Shown one piece after another: positions 4,622-29,284 of a DNA stretch of 37,433 nt. Under the pieces are notes generated by a model. It did not search any database and was not told the origin of the DNA. It saw nothing but the letters and a program-made list of their open reading frames with translations. The stretch comes from a virus (lineage: Duplodnaviria; Heunggongvirae; Uroviricota; Caudoviricetes), in IMG/VR virus record IMGVR_UViG_2718217716_000005; one strand, written 5' to 3'. The position numbers were made by a program, and so were the translations under genes. The number at the start of each line of letters is the position of its first letter. The stretch's first letter is position 1.

Positions 4622-5143
4622 ATGCAACTGATTAATGTTAAACGATATTACCCGGAACACAAACCCTATGGTAATGATGTACAGTATTTTCAGAGTGATG
4701 ATGGTAAGGATTTCTATGAGTCCCTGCCATTATTCACCAAAAAATATAAACTTTGTATAACACCTGACAGCGGCGTTATCTGCTCAATATCACAGGACGC
4801 CTCGGCGCTGTATCCTGCGGGATTTTCCGTGGTTGAGACAGACGAACTCCCTGAAGGCACTGATATTTCAGGAAACTGGAAGTTTGATAATGGCATCATC
4901 TCACGGCTTCCGGTCAATTACGACAAAAAAGCGGAAGAACTGCGCCAGTCATATCTTAATCAGGCATATGAACAAATTAATGACTGGAGAACAGAACTAC
5001 AACTGGGCACCATCAGTGATGAAGACAGAGCAGCACTGGCACGATGGATGGCATACATCAGTCAGGTGAAAAAAATGGTATTACCCGCCATTAAAACTGA
5101 AGCTGAATTTAACGCCATTAAATGGCCTGAGCAGCCACAGTAA
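4622..5143 (+). CDS. Tail fibre assembly chaperone (Tfa family)
   Basis: C-terminus ...DEDRAALARWMAYISQVKKMVLPAIKTEAEFNAIKWPEQPQ and central DASALYPAGFSVVE / GNWKFDNG are typical of Tfa proteins. Start chosen at Met 4622; the ORF could begin at 4571 or 4610. Confidence 0.7.
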   Translation: MQLINVKRYYPEHKPYGNDVQYFQSDDGKDFYESLPLFTKKYKLCITPDSGVICSISQDASALYPAGFSVVETDELPEGTDISGNWKFDNGIISRLPVNYDKKAEELRQSYLNQAYEQINDWRTELQLGTISDEDRAALARWMAYISQVKKMVLPAIKTEAEFNAIKWPEQPQ

Positions 5144-9850: not shown

Positions 9851-11192
9851 TGATCACCTCCACGCTGCGGCCCCCCGGAACAAAAACCGGATCGGAGATA
9901 TTGTTTCTGCGGACAAAATACTGCCAGCGACTGCTGTTGCCGGTGGCACGGTACAGCGTGACCAGTGCCGGTTCGGTGGTGCGAACCATGACCTGAAAAG
10001 CACCGGGAAGATGCACGCTCCGTGTGGTTAAATCTTCTGTCAGCGCAAGCCCTGCATCACGTAATGCAAGGGCAGTCCCGGTATAGCCCTGTGCGGACAG
10101 ATCCAGCACCTGTTGTTCCATGGCATCGCTCAAATCCCGGTTGATACGCTGCACATCAGCAGAACTTTCCAGCCATGCCAGTCCGCCCGAACGGTCAGTA
10201 TCCTGAACGTGCGTCGTATTCTGCCGGATGACCTGATCCAGCAGTTTTCCGACCGTCTGTGCCTGCGACACCAGGGTTGCACTCTGCATCACGCTCCGCA
10301 GCAGACGGATATTTTTCTGTGCCGCAGGCGTCAGGCCAATCAGGCGCTGTGGATCATCCTGTTCGCTGAGGGTGTAACGCAGGGAGGAAAGTGTGCGGTA
10401 CAGCTGCGGCATGGACTGCTCTGCCATGCTGTCACGGTTTGTGGTCAGGCTGCCGGACGGCGTTCCGGCTTTTCCGGTCAGAGACAGGGAAGGATCGCCG
10501 GGCAGCCCGGTCAGCACGGCAAACATTCCGGCCAGCGATTCAGCCATGCGACGGGGCGCATTAATCAGGGCGGCGGCATTGCCTTTCAGGGCAGTAAAAC
10601 TGGCCGTAAAGGCACTGATATCCTGCACAATCCCCATCCCCGAAACGGCATTCTCCAGTGCATCAATCTTATCGCTGATGGTGTCGGTCATGGCCTGTAC
10701 ATCATGCAGACCGTCTGAAATCACCGTCCAGCCGTCTGAAAGCGTGTTAAACAGCTGATTCATTGCTGAGCCGCTTTTCTGCTCCAGCGCAGCTGCCGTA
10801 TCTTCTGCCACCGAAGGGGCGGTATCGTCACTGGCGGGGATCACGTTGATCGTGAACTCAACCGTTCCCTGCTCGCTGGCGTTATAACGGCTTTCAAAGC
10901 TGTTTATCAGCACGTTTAACGTGCCGTAATCCGGGTGCATTAGTTCACCGGCACCGGGTGCACGCAGCGCATCACGCAGGCGGCTTCGCTGTGTCTGAAG
11001 ATCGTCTCCGGTCACCAGAACCGTGAATGTGAACTCCGGGAGTTTTGGCCCCAGATCATCCGCACCGCCGCTTTCACGCAGTGGGTATTCACGGCGCACA
11101 ATGTTACGTCCGCCCCGTTCCCGCTGCTCCTGATAAACCAGGAACGGTACGCCACGAAAGGAGCCACGCCCCGGCGTGTCAGTAGAGGCCAT
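9834..11192 (-). CDS. DNA circularisation protein N-like tail protein
   Basis: 452-aa ORF immediately after the tape measure gene, as Mu N. Confidence 0.65.
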   Translation of the reverse strand: MASTDTPGRGSFRGVPFLVYQEQRERGGRNIVRREYPLRESGGADDLGPKLPEFTFTVLVTGDDLQTQRSRLRDALRAPGAGELMHPDYGTLNVLINSFESRYNASEQGTVEFTINVIPASDDTAPSVAEDTAAALEQKSGSAMNQLFNTLSDGWTVISDGLHDVQAMTDTISDKIDALENAVSGMGIVQDISAFTASFTALKGNAAALINAPRRMAESLAGMFAVLTGLPGDPSLSLTGKAGTPSGSLTTNRDSMAEQSMPQLYRTLSSLRYTLSEQDDPQRLIGLTPAAQKNIRLLRSVMQSATLVSQAQTVGKLLDQVIRQNTTHVQDTDRSGGLAWLESSADVQRINRDLSDAMEQQVLDLSAQGYTGTALALRDAGLALTEDLTTRSVHLPGAFQVMVRTTEPALVTLYRATGNSSRWQYFVRRNNISDPVFVPGGRSVEVISEQQD

Positions 11193-13236
11193 AGTTCCCT
11201 CCGTTCCAGACGTTCACATCCAGGCCATGCTGTGCGGTATCATCCACATCAATACTGCGCGCCCGCCAGCCTTCAGGGGCCACAAGCTCCACCCGTGCGG
11301 CGGTTTTCGCGGTGGCCTGTCCGCCGTTTTCGTCACTGCTGCCACGCAGTTTCTGCCAGGCCTGCGTCAGCCAGCCCCCCAGATAATCACCGAGATAGCT
11401 GCCCACTGTGGAACCAATGGCAACCCCGACCGGACCGGCAGCAGCCCCCAGCGCGCCACCGGCGATACTTCCGGCAAGGGAACCCACGGCACCGGCTTTA
11501 TCGGCTGCGCTGGCGCTGCTGTCCAGCAGTACAGGAGCCGCCATGGCACCGGCCCACAGGGCACCACCACCCAGCCGACCGGCACCACGGAACAGCCCGG
11601 CAAAACGCCCCAGCCCCATGCGGTTTCCGGCCGCCGTTAGCAGACCACCGGCACGGCTCATCATACGACCGAAGAAGCCCTGTTTACCGGCGCTCTCCGC
11701 CAGCTGCTCACCGGCGGTCACGACGGTCGTGACACCCCGCCCGCGTCCGGGGCCGCGTTTTTTACGGCCTCGCACGGTTTTGCCGTCACCGCTGACCACC
11801 ACATCCCCGCCACCTGAGGCCATGCCACCCGCAGGCCAGTTGGTGACCAGCACGGGCTGAACGGCAGCAGGATTTACCCCGGTAAGGAAATTCAGGAAGC
11901 GGCCAGCGCGTCCGGGCTGCGTTCCCGGCACAGTGGTCTGCGGTTTGCGGAAGGGCGACGTCAGCACGGAGGTCATCGCCATACCATAGCGTAAGGGGGT
12001 TGCACCAAGACGTAATGCCCCCGTCCCCGCAAACCTGAGCACCTTCAGCGCGCGGGAGGCGAGATACATATACATCAGGTATTTTGCGGCGGTCTGCGCC
12101 CCCTGACCAATACGATCCAGTGCATCGCCATAACCGGCGTCGCGCAGTGCCTGAAGCGTTTCCCTGACTTTCTGAATGGCCCGGTAAAAGCCGGTTGCAG
12201 CGTCTCTGGCATACTCGAATCCCTGATTCAGGGCTGAGGCCGTCTGTGTGGCCAGCTTATCCTGTAAGCCGCTTTTCTGTGCCGCATCAGCATAATCCAG
12301 AAAGCCTTTCAGGCTCTTTTTCAGGCTGTCAAACGGTCCCTTTGCCATCACCTCACGGGCAAATCCGTCCCAGACGTCGCCCATCATGGACGTCATTCCC
12401 GTCCATGAGTTCATGGCGTTTTTCTGGGCACCTTTTGCCTGTTCGGCCATCACCTGAAATAACAGGCGAATGCTGTCCGGCCCCAGTTTTCCCTTGCTTC
12501 CCAGATCACGAAGCGTTTTCTGGTTAACCCCCAGCTTATCAGCCAGCAACTGGTAAACGTTGATCCCGTAATCCGTAAGAATATTTGCATCTTCCGCCTG
12601 GATACTCTGACGGGCAAACATCTGCTTCAGTTGCATGGAAGCACCCTGAGCACGGTCAAGAGACCATCGCTGAAGTGCCCCCTGATCCTCAAGCATGGTG
12701 ATATAACTTCGTGCCTGTGCATCGGTCATCCCAAAACCACGGCTTGAAGCATACTCCTGCATAACACCAGACAATCCCCATGTGGTGTCTTTGGCGTTTT
12801 GCTCTGCCCACTTACGAATTTCTTCTGTTTTTTCCGTATCACCTTTGTTCAGAGCGTTAAGGCGAAGAATATGATCTTCCATCTCTGCGGCCGGGCGGAT
12901 AAAGGCTTTATTAAAACCGTAGACCGCAGCCCCTCCCGCCAGCATCCCGTAAAGGTTGCTTATCCGCCCGATGGTGCCGGTAATGCTGCCCTGCAGGCGG
13001 TCAAAATCTGACGTTACCGTGCGGATGCTGCCACGAACACCGGCAAGCGTTCGCTGCATACGGGAGCCGACAAGTTCTGTTTCCTGACCGGCCCGGCGGG
13101 CTGCATTTCCAAGACCACCCAGGCCTGTCCTGCCGGAACGGGAGAACGCCCCCAGCTCCTGTGACCACTGGCGGGATTTGGCGGAAATATTGCCGAGTAA
13201 ATCGACAATCAGGGAGGCTTTCAGGTTTTTTGCCAT
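11179..13236 (-). CDS. Tail tape measure protein
   Basis: 685-aa Gly/Ala-rich ORF with helical N-terminal half, downstream of tube and chaperone genes. Confidence 0.8.
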   Translation of the reverse strand: MAKNLKASLIVDLLGNISAKSRQWSQELGAFSRSGRTGLGGLGNAARRAGQETELVGSRMQRTLAGVRGSIRTVTSDFDRLQGSITGTIGRISNLYGMLAGGAAVYGFNKAFIRPAAEMEDHILRLNALNKGDTEKTEEIRKWAEQNAKDTTWGLSGVMQEYASSRGFGMTDAQARSYITMLEDQGALQRWSLDRAQGASMQLKQMFARQSIQAEDANILTDYGINVYQLLADKLGVNQKTLRDLGSKGKLGPDSIRLLFQVMAEQAKGAQKNAMNSWTGMTSMMGDVWDGFAREVMAKGPFDSLKKSLKGFLDYADAAQKSGLQDKLATQTASALNQGFEYARDAATGFYRAIQKVRETLQALRDAGYGDALDRIGQGAQTAAKYLMYMYLASRALKVLRFAGTGALRLGATPLRYGMAMTSVLTSPFRKPQTTVPGTQPGRAGRFLNFLTGVNPAAVQPVLVTNWPAGGMASGGGDVVVSGDGKTVRGRKKRGPGRGRGVTTVVTAGEQLAESAGKQGFFGRMMSRAGGLLTAAGNRMGLGRFAGLFRGAGRLGGGALWAGAMAAPVLLDSSASAADKAGAVGSLAGSIAGGALGAAAGPVGVAIGSTVGSYLGDYLGGWLTQAWQKLRGSSDENGGQATAKTAARVELVAPEGWRARSIDVDDTAQHGLDVNVWNGGNYGLY

Positions 13237-13239
13237 GGG

Positions 13240-13434
13240 TTACTGCTTCGTTCTGAGAATTTTTTCGGTCTGTCGGCAGTGCCGGTAAAGCTGCGATAAG
13301 GGGAGGTTAAGCGCCCACTCCGGGCCGCTTTTTGTCACCATCCCCAGCACAATTGCCGCTTCTTCAATCTGATCCCGGCACTGCATCTGGTCGCCCCCGT
13401 TCAGCGACCAGCTTTCCGGCCATCGCGGAATCAA
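13240..13434 (-). CDS. Possible frameshift-extension ORF of the tail assembly chaperone (reached by +1/-2 shift)
   Basis: Overlaps the last 71 nt of the chaperone ORF in another frame and runs to 4 nt before the tape measure start; begins at TTG, so unlikely to be independently initiated. Confidence 0.3.
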   Translation of the reverse strand: MIPRWPESWSLNGGDQMQCRDQIEEAAIVLGMVTKSGPEWALNLPLSQLYRHCRQTEKILRTKQ

Positions 13435-13843
13435 GCAGGCTTACCGCCGCCATCAGACGGGAGAGATCGCGCTCGCTGAGCTGTCCAATCTGACGCGGAG
13501 ACAATGGCCCTTCAATCTGGCCGACAGCAGCAATCTGGCGGCGCAGCAGTGCAATGCCGCGCAGTGCCGGTGAGGCTATCAGAACCGGGCCGCCATTTCG
13601 GGTTTCCATAAGACGCTCGGCCTCGGTTTCCGCATCAATGCTGTCTTTCGCCGTCAGTTCGCGGAAGGTGACGCGGTATTCACGGGATTCACCGAACGGC
13701 AGGCCGTCGAGCAGATCCACATAGCCGTTCGCCAGCTGTTCAGCCAGTCCGGTGGTGCGGGGATCGCCGTCTTCAAGTGCATCCCGGATAGCCTCCATCA
13801 CGGCCTCGTCAGAAACCGCCGTTTTTTTCTTACGTGTGCTCAT
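13364..13843 (-). CDS. Tail assembly chaperone (between tube and tape measure)
   Basis: 159-aa acidic protein in the conserved position. Confidence 0.6.
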   Translation of the reverse strand: MSTRKKKTAVSDEAVMEAIRDALEDGDPRTTGLAEQLANGYVDLLDGLPFGESREYRVTFRELTAKDSIDAETEAERLMETRNGGPVLIASPALRGIALLRRQIAAVGQIEGPLSPRQIGQLSERDLSRLMAAVSLLDSAMAGKLVAERGRPDAVPGSD

Positions 13844-13857
13844 TACATTTTTCCTGA

Positions 13858-14223
13858 TTACTGGACACGGGTACTGGTGGCGCTGGCGAACTTCGCGGAG
13901 ATATCACCGCCACCGTCAAGCGAGGCCGGTTCACTGCTCCAGGCCTTCGTCATCATGTGGACTTCACCGGTATCGGCCACGAACTCAATCGTGACCGCAG
14001 TCCAGGTGTTGATTTCATCGGCAGCCGGTGAACCTTCTCCGCCAGCCGGAAATTTACAGTCCAGCGTCGCCTCGCGGGGTTTCTCGCGATAGCCGTAAAC
14101 TTTCGCGCCTTTCACCACTTCACGCTCAAAGCCGGACGGGGAGAACGTAGCCCCCTCAAGGGTGGCGTACTCCTGTCCGTTCACACGGATGGTGGCCGTG
14201 CCCTGATGTTTATTTCCGCTCAT
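13858..14223 (-). CDS. Tail tube protein (Mu M-like)
   Basis: 121-aa ORF immediately downstream of the sheath gene. Confidence 0.7.
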   Translation of the reverse strand: MSGNKHQGTATIRVNGQEYATLEGATFSPSGFEREVVKGAKVYGYREKPREATLDCKFPAGGEGSPAADEINTWTAVTIEFVADTGEVHMMTKAWSSEPASLDGGGDISAKFASATSTRVQ

Positions 14224-14231
14224 GCCTTACC

Positions 14232-15713
14232 TCACAAAATGAAACGGATCTGCGCGGCCATGAAGCGGAACTGGTTAACCAGATCCGGTGTACACATCAC
14301 ATCCAGACGGTTACGGTCTTTTGTGTTGCGCTCCACGAGCAGATTCTTTTTAAAGGTGTCCAGATTTTCGACCAGTCCCAGATCCACCCATTCTTCCCCC
14401 AGCGCAATCAGCTGGAGCGTCATGATCTCCGGCGTCACGATATTCTGACCGGGCCGGACGGGAGTACCGTTATCGGCCAGTTTGTGGCGCGGGAAACGCT
14501 GCGTGATAAAGGTGCGCAGGGAATAACGCAGATATGACAGGGTGTAGATGGTTTCCACATCCAGATAGCTGGGATCGCTTTCGCCGTATGCATTCTGACG
14601 GTACATCGTCACCTGACGTTCAATCTGCACCACATCAGCGGCCGCGACGGTCACCGTGGACATGCCGGTATAAAGCAGGCTGTTTCGCTCTTCCCGTGTC
14701 AGGCGATCTGATTCTGCCGGTGCCAGTCGAGCAGGCAACGCCAGCGTCTGGAGTGGGCGGGCAGGATCGGCAGACAGTGACGGTGCACAGACTGCACAAA
14801 TAGAAGCTGCCCAGACATAATCCGGCTCTGGTGCCTTCGGAATGGAGGTACAGGTAAACAGGAAATCATTACGGGACTCACCAAAACTGGTTGCCGTGCC
14901 GAAGGTGCCGGTATGCGCCATCCAGACCATACCGTCTGACATTTTTACCGGTCCCCAGCGTTTCAGCAGTTCTTCCGCCAGAATTTTGAGATTCGCCGCA
15001 TCCTTATAGGGCATCACAATATAGTTATACTGGCGCGTCCCCATGGCAGCGATGCTGTTGGTAATATCCGGGTTTTTCGGCGCGGTGCCTCCGGCAGTGG
15101 AAACAACAATCCCGGCGGGTGTCACTTCACCGGAATAATAATTCAGCCGGATATCATGCACGGAGCATTCGCCGGTAAATTTTGCCGTCAGGGTGATCAC
15201 TTTTTTTGTCTGATCCTGATTATCCGGGGGGACGCTGGTCGTGGCGCTGACCGGACAGTCCTGGTCTGCGTTAATCATCGCGGCAAGCGCATCCGCCAGA
15301 AGATTACCCGGTTTGCCTTTGCTGACGGCCAGACGGTAAGGACGTCCGGCGATATAGAGATTCAGCACATTGTCTTCCGTTGCTGTACCGGAAAGCGTGA
15401 TGGTGCCGGATGTGGCCGTGCCGGTGCCTTCCCCCTGTGCAATGCCGTACAGCTCCGTATCAGGGTTAATGGCAATAAACGCTGCCACCATCTGCGCAAT
15501 CATGGAGCCACGCCCCCAGAGTTCTGTCGCCTGAGACGCGCGGGTGATACGGACAGGAGAATCAACAACACCAAACGCATTACGGTTTCGCTGACCAAAC
15601 AATAGCACCGCCTGACGCTGCGGCGGCGTGCCGGTCACGGCCATTGAGTTATTGATTTCAATCTGTACCAGCGGGATGCGATTGTTATCGCCGATAAAAT
15701 CAAAGTTAATCAT
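14232..15713 (-). CDS. Contractile tail sheath protein (Mu L-like)
   Basis: 493-aa ORF, size and position as Mu L. Confidence 0.8.
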   Translation of the reverse strand: MINFDFIGDNNRIPLVQIEINNSMAVTGTPPQRQAVLLFGQRNRNAFGVVDSPVRITRASQATELWGRGSMIAQMVAAFIAINPDTELYGIAQGEGTGTATSGTITLSGTATEDNVLNLYIAGRPYRLAVSKGKPGNLLADALAAMINADQDCPVSATTSVPPDNQDQTKKVITLTAKFTGECSVHDIRLNYYSGEVTPAGIVVSTAGGTAPKNPDITNSIAAMGTRQYNYIVMPYKDAANLKILAEELLKRWGPVKMSDGMVWMAHTGTFGTATSFGESRNDFLFTCTSIPKAPEPDYVWAASICAVCAPSLSADPARPLQTLALPARLAPAESDRLTREERNSLLYTGMSTVTVAAADVVQIERQVTMYRQNAYGESDPSYLDVETIYTLSYLRYSLRTFITQRFPRHKLADNGTPVRPGQNIVTPEIMTLQLIALGEEWVDLGLVENLDTFKKNLLVERNTKDRNRLDVMCTPDLVNQFRFMAAQIRFIL

Positions 15714-16063: not shown

Positions 16064-16330
16064 ATGTCATCAGAAAATCAACCATCACCAGAGATTCAGT
16101 TCGCTCATGACCTTGTAAATGGGTTAGCTATTGCGGTGAATATTCTGATCCAGAAACTGGAACAGGACGGAACACTGTCCATGAATGAATTTCTGGACAA
16201 ACTTCGTCAGCAACACACTGGTTTACTCGCACAGAACCAGAAAACTATCGCTCATGGCGTCAACCTGCTTTTGGGATCGCTTGAGTATGTGACGACCACG
16301 AAGAGCGACCAGACAAATCAAGCTCACTAA
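16064..16330 (+). CDS. Hypothetical helical protein (88 aa), opposite-strand insertion inside the tail cluster
   Basis: ATG at 16064 preceded by TAAGGAG at 5-nt spacing. Lower GC than flanking genes. Followed by its own stem-loop. Confidence 0.55.
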   Translation: MSSENQPSPEIQFAHDLVNGLAIAVNILIQKLEQDGTLSMNEFLDKLRQQHTGLLAQNQKTIAHGVNLLLGSLEYVTTTKSDQTNQAH

Positions 16331-17005: not shown

Positions 17006-17421
17006 ATAAAGCCCTTCTGGTTGCGCCCGAACACCGCCGCATCAGACTGTACCTGCGGTAAGTCCCCGGATTCAGGGGCCGCACCGTCGGTATCCACGCC
17101 GACCGGCACGTTGCCGTTCATGACGTCTTTCAGCCAGGCCAGCGCCTCACGATAACGGTCACGCGCCTGTTCAGCTCCCCGTTGATCGCACAGGTAATAA
17201 AAGGCAATCGCGCAGCAGTGCTGAACAAGGACCGCCGGAACCACCGCCAGCGGCAGCGTGTAACGGGCAGACAGGTAGCTGTCGATAAGGGCAGACGCGT
17301 CCGTCAGCGCCCGGTTCAGTTTGCGCGTGTCCGGTTCATCCGAACGGGGCACGGCCAGTAATGACCTGAGCAAATCCTCGCGGTAACGCGCCCGCATATC
17401 GGTTTCGGTGGCGTAATTCAT
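17002..17421 (-). CDS. Head-tail joining protein (Mu J position)
   Basis: 139-aa ORF overlapping both neighbours. Confidence 0.55.
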   Translation of the reverse strand: MNYATETDMRARYREDLLRSLLAVPRSDEPDTRKLNRALTDASALIDSYLSARYTLPLAVVPAVLVQHCCAIAFYYLCDQRGAEQARDRYREALAWLKDVMNGNVPVGVDTDGAAPESGDLPQVQSDAAVFGRNQKGFI

Positions 17422-17831
17422 GCGCGCGCCTTTTTTTTCTGTCTGGCTTTATTGCCGGTCTTTTTCCGGGGAGCATCCTGTCCGGCTTCGGCTTCGGCTT
17501 CGGCTTCGGCTTCGGCTTCGGCTTCGGCTTCGGCTTCGGCTTCGGCTTCGGCTAAATCTGCACCGGTCGCTGCATGAACCACACCCGCCACGGCTCCCGC
17601 ATCATCACCAGGCGTCTGTAGTATTCGTACAGTGAGGCATGGCTCCGCTTCCAGTCGGGCAAGCTGTTCCGGGGTGACGTCAACCTGCTGGCGTCCCCGC
17701 ATGAACAGGAACCCCGCACGACGAAACTGCGCACGATTGCAACGCACTTCTGCCAGTACCGTGACAGGATTGTCACCACTGACCTGAAGGCCTGAGTCAT
17801 CTGTTGCTGCCACAGTGTGATGTTCATTCAT
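17418..17831 (-). CDS. Hypothetical head-region protein with internal (Glu-Ala)n repeat and basic C-terminal tail
   Basis: 137-aa ORF between the major head gene and the J-like gene. Contains AEAEAEAEAEAEAEAEAEAEAEA and ends KKTGNKARQKKKARA. Confidence 0.55.
   Translation of the reverse strand: MNEHHTVAATDDSGLQVSGDNPVTVLAEVRCNRAQFRRAGFLFMRGRQQVDVTPEQLARLEAEPCLTVRILQTPGDDAGAVAGVVHAATGADLAEAEAEAEAEAEAEAEAEAEAEAGQDAPRKKTGNKARQKKKARA
17484..17552. repeat. Perfect hexanucleotide tandem repeat (GGCTTC)x11.5, in-frame, coding (Glu-Ala)n on the minus strand
   Basis: Seen directly as ggcttc repeated without interruption for 69 nt. Confidence 0.95.
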
Positions 17832-20597: not shown

Positions 20598-20718
20598 ATT
20601 GCCTCCGCATAAAGGATGAATATAAAATAAACAGGCGGTCAGTGTACGCTTAACTGGTAAAGTCGGTGCCTGCCTCCGGGTGGATCATGTATGCGGGTTC
20701 GACCCCCGCCACTGACCG

Positions 20719-28942: not shown

Positions 28943-29284
28943 ATGACTTTTGGCCCCATCATTGAGTTTGAATCAGGCTATACCGATGACATGTACCAGT
29001 CCCTGCAGGATAATGGTATCAGATACACCCCTATTGCAGCTTTATCATACAATGTAACCGAAATGGTTGAGTTGCTCCATGCGGTTAACACGCCAGAAAC
29101 ATGGGCCGCTATTGTTCTCATCGTAAAAAAATGGATAAACCGACACAAGGATGCCAGTGTTGAATTAACCATGAATGAGAACGGGCAACTGACATCCGTA
29201 AAAATAAACGGCTACAACGTAAATGATCTGGATAAGCTTGGAGTACCCAGTTTGATTCGAGCTTCTTTTAAATCAGAGGAGTAA
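28943..29284 (+). CDS. Hypothetical protein (113 aa), opposite-strand low-GC insertion between GemA and the Mor/C activator
   Basis: ATG at 28943 after a very AT-rich 270-bp leader, followed immediately by a terminator hairpin. No recognisable motif. Confidence 0.6.
   Translation: MTFGPIIEFESGYTDDMYQSLQDNGIRYTPIAALSYNVTEMVELLHAVNTPETWAAIVLIVKKWINRHKDASVELTMNENGQLTSVKINGYNVNDLDKLGVPSLIRASFKSEE

Follow-up and report, generated by a model that had tools for sequence, protein, structure and literature searches.

[quoted passage not shown] The window (the whole stretch of DNA that was analysed, 37,433 nt) is 100% identical to positions 966894-1004326 of the chromosome of E. coli strain M3 (NZ_CP010183.1), and is a complete Mu-like prophage, extending from mom/com through the transposase. 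Its tail operon, on the minus strand, keeps the Mu order of sheath, tube, gp41-type chaperone and tape measure: a tail sheath gene (14232..15713; Pfam Phage_sheath_1, E = 1.8e-33; PHROG 165, E = 1.5e-197) is followed by a tail tube gene (13858..14223; Pfam Tail_tube, E = 1.2e-29) directly upstream of the chaperone gene (13364..13843), and then by the gene for a tape measure protein of 685 aa (11179..13236, with its ATG at 13236; Pfam TMP_3, E = 8e-20; PHROG 973, E = 2e-193). The 127 nt between chaperone and tape measure form the only gap in this operon that exceeds 14 nt; the remaining junctions measure 8 nt or 14 nt or are overlaps, and all later ones overlap. A preliminary description of this DNA proposed that the gap is filled by an overlapping frame, entered through a programmed frameshift comparable to the G/GT frameshift of tailed phages.

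The 0-frame product of the chaperone gene is a protein of 159 aa homologous to Mu gp41, matching Pfam PF23746 (‘Gp41_Mu, tail assembly protein gp41’; E = 1.2e-32; 112.6 bits, where the cut-off is 27) and PHROG 508 (‘tail assembly chaperone’; E = 3.7e-44), with 48% identity to its Mu counterpart in a tblastn comparison (E = 1e-25). The N-terminal domain is modelled at a pLDDT of about 90, and the best fold match for this model in BFVD is Mu FS-gp41 (P0DJY4; E = 1.2e-17). As previously described, an ORF in the +1/−2 frame overlaps the end of this gene by 71 nt, and the coordinates of the two agree with that overlap: the chaperone ORF runs from 13843 to 13364, ending in TGA, and the second ORF, 64 aa long in the ORF list, from its first start codon (TTG at 13434) to 13240 on the same strand. 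The frame itself is open from about 13440, 74 nt upstream of the chaperone stop, and closes with a TAA at 13242-13240, followed by 3 nt and then the tape measure ATG; the claim that it reaches the tape measure start is thus borne out as well.

Beyond the chaperone stop the −1 frame is shut after 29 nt, and the +1/−2 frame stays open for 124 nt. A canonical −1 shift of the G/GT type (as in lambda, P2 and HK97) does not fit, given this early closure of the −1 frame and the absence of any X XXY YYZ heptamer in the 0 frame across the whole chaperone gene. From a single sequence the open +1/−2 frame is unremarkable, as a given frame stays open in 15% of shuffles of the 125-nt spacer. Since this test is not significant, the case is built on comparison with relatives, and it is homology and conservation (a match to PHROG 12783, 52% identity to Mu, retention in 92 of 95 loci) that place the frame beyond chance.

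No shift site had been named in the preliminary description. A search of the overlap reveals one, the octamer GG GGG CGA at 13391..13398 on the minus strand (read from 13398 to 13391), which stands in the chaperone frame and is the same as in Mu and D108. This octamer, GGGGGCGA, occurs once in the 37.4-kb window when both strands are counted. Its GGG (13396-13394) and CGA (13393-13391) are 0-frame codons 150 and 151 (Gly-Arg), the triplet series CGG GGG CGA spans 13399-13391, and the run of five G is the sole homopolymer run of at least 4 nt in the overlap. The suggested comparison with the Mu site gave identity in sequence and in frame: the window shares with Mu and D108 the 12 nt around the site, GAACGGGGGCGA, along with the frame in which they are read, and in these two phages they lie at the end of gene 41. 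The prophage uses CGA for only 5.3% of its Arg codons and GGG for 19% of its Gly codons, yet both are fixed at the slip site.

In phage Mu itself, a −2 programmed ribosomal frameshift yielding gp41 and FS-gp41 was reportedly described by Xu, Hendrix and Duda in 2004. The GenBank record of Mu (AF083977) carries the joined CDS Mu_56, annotated as ‘tail assembly chaperone; verified -2 translational frameshift in PMID 15469818’. Lin et al. (2012, PMC3458567) account for the Mu shift by tandem −2 slippage on GG GGG CGA, with a tRNA-Arg (anticodon ICG) in the A site that re-pairs better after a −2 slip than after a −1 slip; Atkins et al. (2016, PMC5009743) include Mu in the small number of −2 cases. 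A search of the literature by the slip-site motif returned unrelated papers only. Conceptual −2 translation of the Mu sequence reproduces UniProt P0DJY4 (‘Probable tail assembly protein FS-gp41’) at every residue. This entry differs from the GenBank product UIW09302.1 solely in the junction residue (...ERGG-EWL in P0DJY4 vs. ...ERGR-EWL in UIW09302.1; Mu DNA at about positions 1858-1866 of the fetched locus), which corresponds to a slip in the P site only (G) vs. a tandem −2 slip (R), and even in Mu the residue at the junction is thus uncertain.

The window and Mu have in common a homologous chaperone, the gene order, the 12-nt site in frame, the −2/+1 target frame, and a homologous extension (52% identity over 51 aa counted from the GGC codon) whose stop adjoins the tape measure start. 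They differ in several details: the chaperone in the window is 159 aa long, with a longer N-terminus, vs. 144 aa in Mu; the 0-frame stop follows the first G of GGG at 30 nt vs. 24 nt; the stop of the extension precedes the tape measure ATG by 3 nt vs. 14 nt; and the fourth codon of the extension is ATG in the window and CTG in Mu.

After the shift, the −2 frame would supply 50 codons, from GAC at 13392-13390 to the TAA at 13242-13240 (13240..13392, minus strand), encoding DQMQCRDQIEEAAIVLGMVTKSGPEWALNLPLSQLYRHCRQTEKILRTKQ. This extension matches PHROG 12783 (E = 9.6e-39) and the Mu extension (52% identity, E = 1e-21). In 41 alignable sequences, past the 0-frame stop, substitutions at −2-frame codon positions 1, 2 and 3 stand in the ratio 6106:3194:11081, a pattern by which the extension, as judged from the alignment, evolves as coding sequence in the −2 frame.

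In order to follow the arrangement across relatives, 95 loci were compared (12 genomic and 80 viral gp41-relative loci, Mu, D108 and the window). [quoted passage not shown] The codon before GGG is CGG in 54, AAG in 8 and TCG in one, such that the encoded residue varies and the last G of the codon never does; in Vibrio phage martha 12B12, which was fetched separately, the site reads AGG GGG CGA. This invariant G fits re-pairing of the P-site tRNA 2 nt upstream and would be unnecessary for a +1 slip. The natural variants AAG, TCG and AGG GGG CGA keep the whole architecture, which suggests that the A-site CGA and the GGG core may outweigh perfect re-pairing in the P site. In some relatives the −2 frame opens merely 8-11 nt before GGG, thereby confining the shift to about 29 nt around the motif.

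All relatives that carry the site also have a −2-frame extension of 45-52 aa, and in all of them it ends close to the tape measure start, between 23 nt inside it and 14 nt before it (−23 to +14 nt). The arrangement extends from Escherichia to Vibrio and Magnetospirillum, and persists where similarity of the extension is no longer recognisable (in the Vibrio, Brenneria, Neptuniibacter and Magnetospirillum clades). Six named phages carry the site: Pasteurella phage Pmp9, Alteromonadaceae phage B23, Shewanella phage MuM16-2, Vibrio 1.028.O, martha 12B12 and Shigella SfMu. Each has an in-frame GG GGG CGA (AGG GGG CGA in martha) and a −2-frame extension of 48-52 aa that reaches the tape measure start. 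The overlapping frame, whose conservation the preliminary description had left to comparison with relatives, is therefore kept in 92 of 95 loci and in these six phages. With a Mu-identical site and with both the frame and the extension conserved, the earlier proposal of a G/GT-like chaperone frameshift into the +1/−2 frame gains support.

The feature is the already known Mu-type −2 chaperone frameshift, in a relative lacking frameshift annotation, and very probably a −2 shift at GG GGG CGA yields a chaperone-extension fusion in this Mu-like prophage. Most ribosomes would reach the chaperone TGA and release the 159-aa protein, while a minority would slip 2 nt back at GG GGG CGA. In the tandem model, that of Mu, both tRNAs would slip together: in the P site tRNA-Gly would exchange its GGG for the overlapping one, and in the A site tRNA-Arg (anticodon ICG) would exchange CGA for GGC. 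In a P-site-only model the slip would take place while the poorly decoded CGA is still vacant. Following the slip, the 50 codons of the −2 frame would be read as far as the stop, 3 nt short of the tape measure ATG. The predicted fusion is a protein of 201 aa, join(13843..13391, 13392..13240), with the sequence ...VAERG(R or G)DQMQCRDQ...TKQ. A tandem slip would give 151 chaperone residues ending in ...VAERGR and then the extension DQMQCRDQIEEAAIVLGMVTKSGPEWALNLPLSQLYRHCRQTEKILRTKQ, with a predicted Glu-C junction peptide of RGRDQMQCRDQIE; a P-site-only slip would give ...ERGG-DQMQ, also in a protein of 201 aa, with a predicted Glu-C junction peptide of RGGDQMQCRDQIE.

That the fusion would be produced in this prophage, its likely efficiency, the −2 rather than +1 direction of the slip, and a role in assembly are inferred from the Mu precedent and the biology of lambda gpG/gpGT (PMC5009743). 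By analogy with the lambda proteins, both chaperone forms would coat the tape measure protein, with the rarer, extended form recruiting tube subunits and neither form staying in the virion.

A +1 slip, in which tRNA-Gly in the P site would shift forward from GGG to GGC during slow decoding of a CGA waiting in the A site, would land in the same frame, and is improbable. It would yield a product of 200 aa, one residue shorter (...AERG-DQMQ...), with a predicted Glu-C peptide of RGDQMQCRDQIE. The combination of GGG with a rare Arg codon (CGA, at 5.3% of Arg codons) does resemble a classic ‘hungry codon’ +1 site, and the relatives whose sites have four G (AAG GGG CGA, TCG GGG CGA) would suffer a first-position mismatch after a −2 slip. 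However, for Mu, whose site is identical, the database record gives a verified −2 shift, the Mu database products are 188 aa long and not 187, and a +1 slip leaves the invariant G before GGG, present in 63 of 63 contexts while its codon varies, without a reason.

It is more improbable still that no recoding takes place, and that a separate protein of 48 aa is instead initiated at an ATG at 13386, with the G-run acting as a Shine-Dalgarno sequence. This ORF (13240..13386, minus strand) is called by PGAP as the RefSeq ‘hypothetical protein’ WP_001149937.1, a GGGGG lies 7 nt upstream of its ATG, D108 has a similar CDS, ‘41.5’, and an ATG is found at the 13386-equivalent codon in 23 of 63 distinct relatives. 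Elsewhere, however, that codon is CTG (16), GCG (8) or GAG (5), and also TTG, AAA, AAC, ATA or CAG; the start of D108 ‘41.5’ is CTG; and in 18 of 63 contexts, Mu among them, the −2 frame has no ATG, GTG or TTG near the site. A Shine-Dalgarno role would moreover leave unexplained both the invariant CGA and the constant GGG CGA in the chaperone frame. With 18 of 63 contexts devoid of a canonical start, independent initiation cannot be the common mechanism, and it may be an extra route here. The earlier argument against such initiation, namely that the ORF begins at TTG, was weak in itself, given the in-frame ATG at 13386 and the Shine-Dalgarno-like G-run; its conclusion is upheld by the relatives that lack a start.

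As such an extra route, the G-run might serve twice, as −2 slip site and as Shine-Dalgarno sequence for the ATG at 13386, giving rise to an additional free 48-aa peptide; we regard this as unlikely. What speaks for it is the spacing of 7 nt. The ATG is present in 23 of 63 distinct relatives, distributed across several deep clades. If it were true, the locus would make three products and have a second control of the ratio of chaperone to extension.

Transcriptional slippage, by which RNA polymerase would add two G or drop one within the run of five, is highly improbable. It would give the same proteins as the ribosomal shift, and database sequences with four G encode in-frame fusions. In bacteria, productive transcriptional slippage requires long runs of A or T, usually of at least seven. 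The run here consists of five G, and of four in the AAG and TCG variants with the same architecture, and slippage of the polymerase leaves the invariant CGA unexplained. Finally, that the frame is open by chance, in a spacer that encodes nothing, is a reading of negligible probability despite the shuffles that keep such a frame open, and is refuted by the PHROG match, the identity to Mu, the codon-position pattern and the 92 of 95 loci across distant hosts.

The exceptions among the 95 loci are three in which a G-run of four fuses the two frames: Kluyvera genomosp. 3 YDC799 (twice) and Erwinia tracheiphila ICMP 5845. In the four-G copy of Kluyvera YDC799 another indel follows some 70 nt downstream, and similar in-frame fusions of chaperone and extension occur among a few proteins in the databases. 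Among 30 IMG/VR contigs with the Mu-type context, 29 have five G and one has four, the latter with a second indel nearby. Such four-G variants are likely to represent homopolymer sequencing errors or decayed prophages, and might conceivably be real constitutive fusions. Phase variation by means of these variants was considered and rejected, as they account for one of the 30 contigs, with a second indel near it, and sequencing error or gene decay is the likelier explanation.

A downstream stimulatory RNA element is unsupported. The 75 nt from the site can form a hairpin, with a minimum free energy of −17.6 kcal/mol that does not differ from that of shuffled sequence (z = 0.0), and the corresponding segments of relatives give z values from −1.6 to +1.4; RNAalifold on 31 sequences produced a trivial stem of 3 bp and no shared hairpin. 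A hairpin drawn from alignment columns 15-24/42-52 (about 13385-13376 with 13358-13348), in which 75% of cells are paired, fails against slid controls, of which the +3 slide reaches 67% with a higher covariation score. The hairpins of a Pasteurellaceae-like clade lie in another register, and are explicable by the reverse-complement codons of Gln (CAG/CAA) and Leu (CTG/TTG). An Rfam search of the window gave no match at gathering thresholds, and around the site a meaningless snoRNA match (E = 0.96); a search of PDB sequences with the fusion likewise gave no match.

The arrangement resembles lambda gpG/gpGT and P2 gpE/gpE+E′ in that a small chaperone gene lies directly upstream of the tape measure gene, that a C-terminally extended form is made, or here predicted, at low frequency from an overlapping frame filling the gap to the tape measure gene, and that the presumed roles are coating of the tape measure and recruitment of tube subunits. 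In contrast to the canonical −1 shift in those phages, the target frame here is −2/+1. A backward shift of 2 nt into the +1 frame, giving one residue more than a +1 shift would, is likewise found in arterivirus nsp2TF (PRRSV) and in Trichomonas vaginalis virus 1; these are eukaryotic RNA viruses, however, with U-rich slippery sequences and with unrelated genes and functions. The arterivirus −2 shift uses a protein trans-activator. In the haloarchaeal myovirus HSTV-2 a predicted tail chaperone extension also lies in the +1 frame. There, however, the prediction is of a true +1 slip, the sequence is unrelated and the host belongs to another domain, whereas the site in the window is the Mu −2 site.

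As biology, the addition is slight, in that a textbook example of rare bacterial −2 frameshifting has turned up once more in a Mu relative. What is gained in practice concerns annotation, since public annotation misses the fusion. The same region is present in 228 of 5426 complete E. coli genomes. No frameshift product is named among the features of the 12 E. coli records listed, and in the E. coli records inspected the extension is either unannotated or given as the 48-aa hypothetical protein. Similarly, a frameshift product is annotated in none of the records of the six named phages, where an apparent gap of 107-144 nt stands instead, and the fusion protein of this lineage was absent from the protein collection searched. 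A simple rule should serve to find further cases: a PF23746 gene with G GGG CGA in its own frame, no more than about 20 codons from its end, together with a −2-frame ORF of 45-52 aa that ends at the tape measure start. The natural site variants provide material for studies of −2 slippage.

Several other features were observed in the prophage. Three small ORFs, at 1183-1443, 16064-16330 and 28943-29284, are annotated on the plus strand of an otherwise uniformly minus-strand prophage, and are moron-like. A tail fibre assembly gene (4622-5143, plus strand) is opposite in strand to the adjoining tail fibre genes, recalling the invertible G segment of Mu; a search around it for the long inverted repeats of a Mu-style invertible segment found none, and the window lacks an annotated invertase. 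Within the ORF at 17418-17831 (minus strand), a 6-nt unit (CGGCTT on the plus strand) is repeated perfectly in tandem for 11.8 copies at positions 17483-17553, encoding an (Ala-Glu)n tract of an ‘HI1506-related protein’, and the copy number of this repeat could differ between strains.

A tRNA-like element at 20638-20717 (plus strand) lies antisense to the late genes, in a 121-nt gap between the virion morphogenesis and minor head genes. Under permissive filters only, it matches the Rfam tRNA family RF00005 with 31 bits (gathering threshold 29; E = 4e-5). ARAGORN makes no call at this element, and phage Mu has no match to it. Its acceptor, D and T arms fit, with an anticodon region of 24 nt vs. 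18; PGAP labels it ‘tRNA-OTHER’, and it is 97.5% conserved in a Mu-like insert of two Stx phages.
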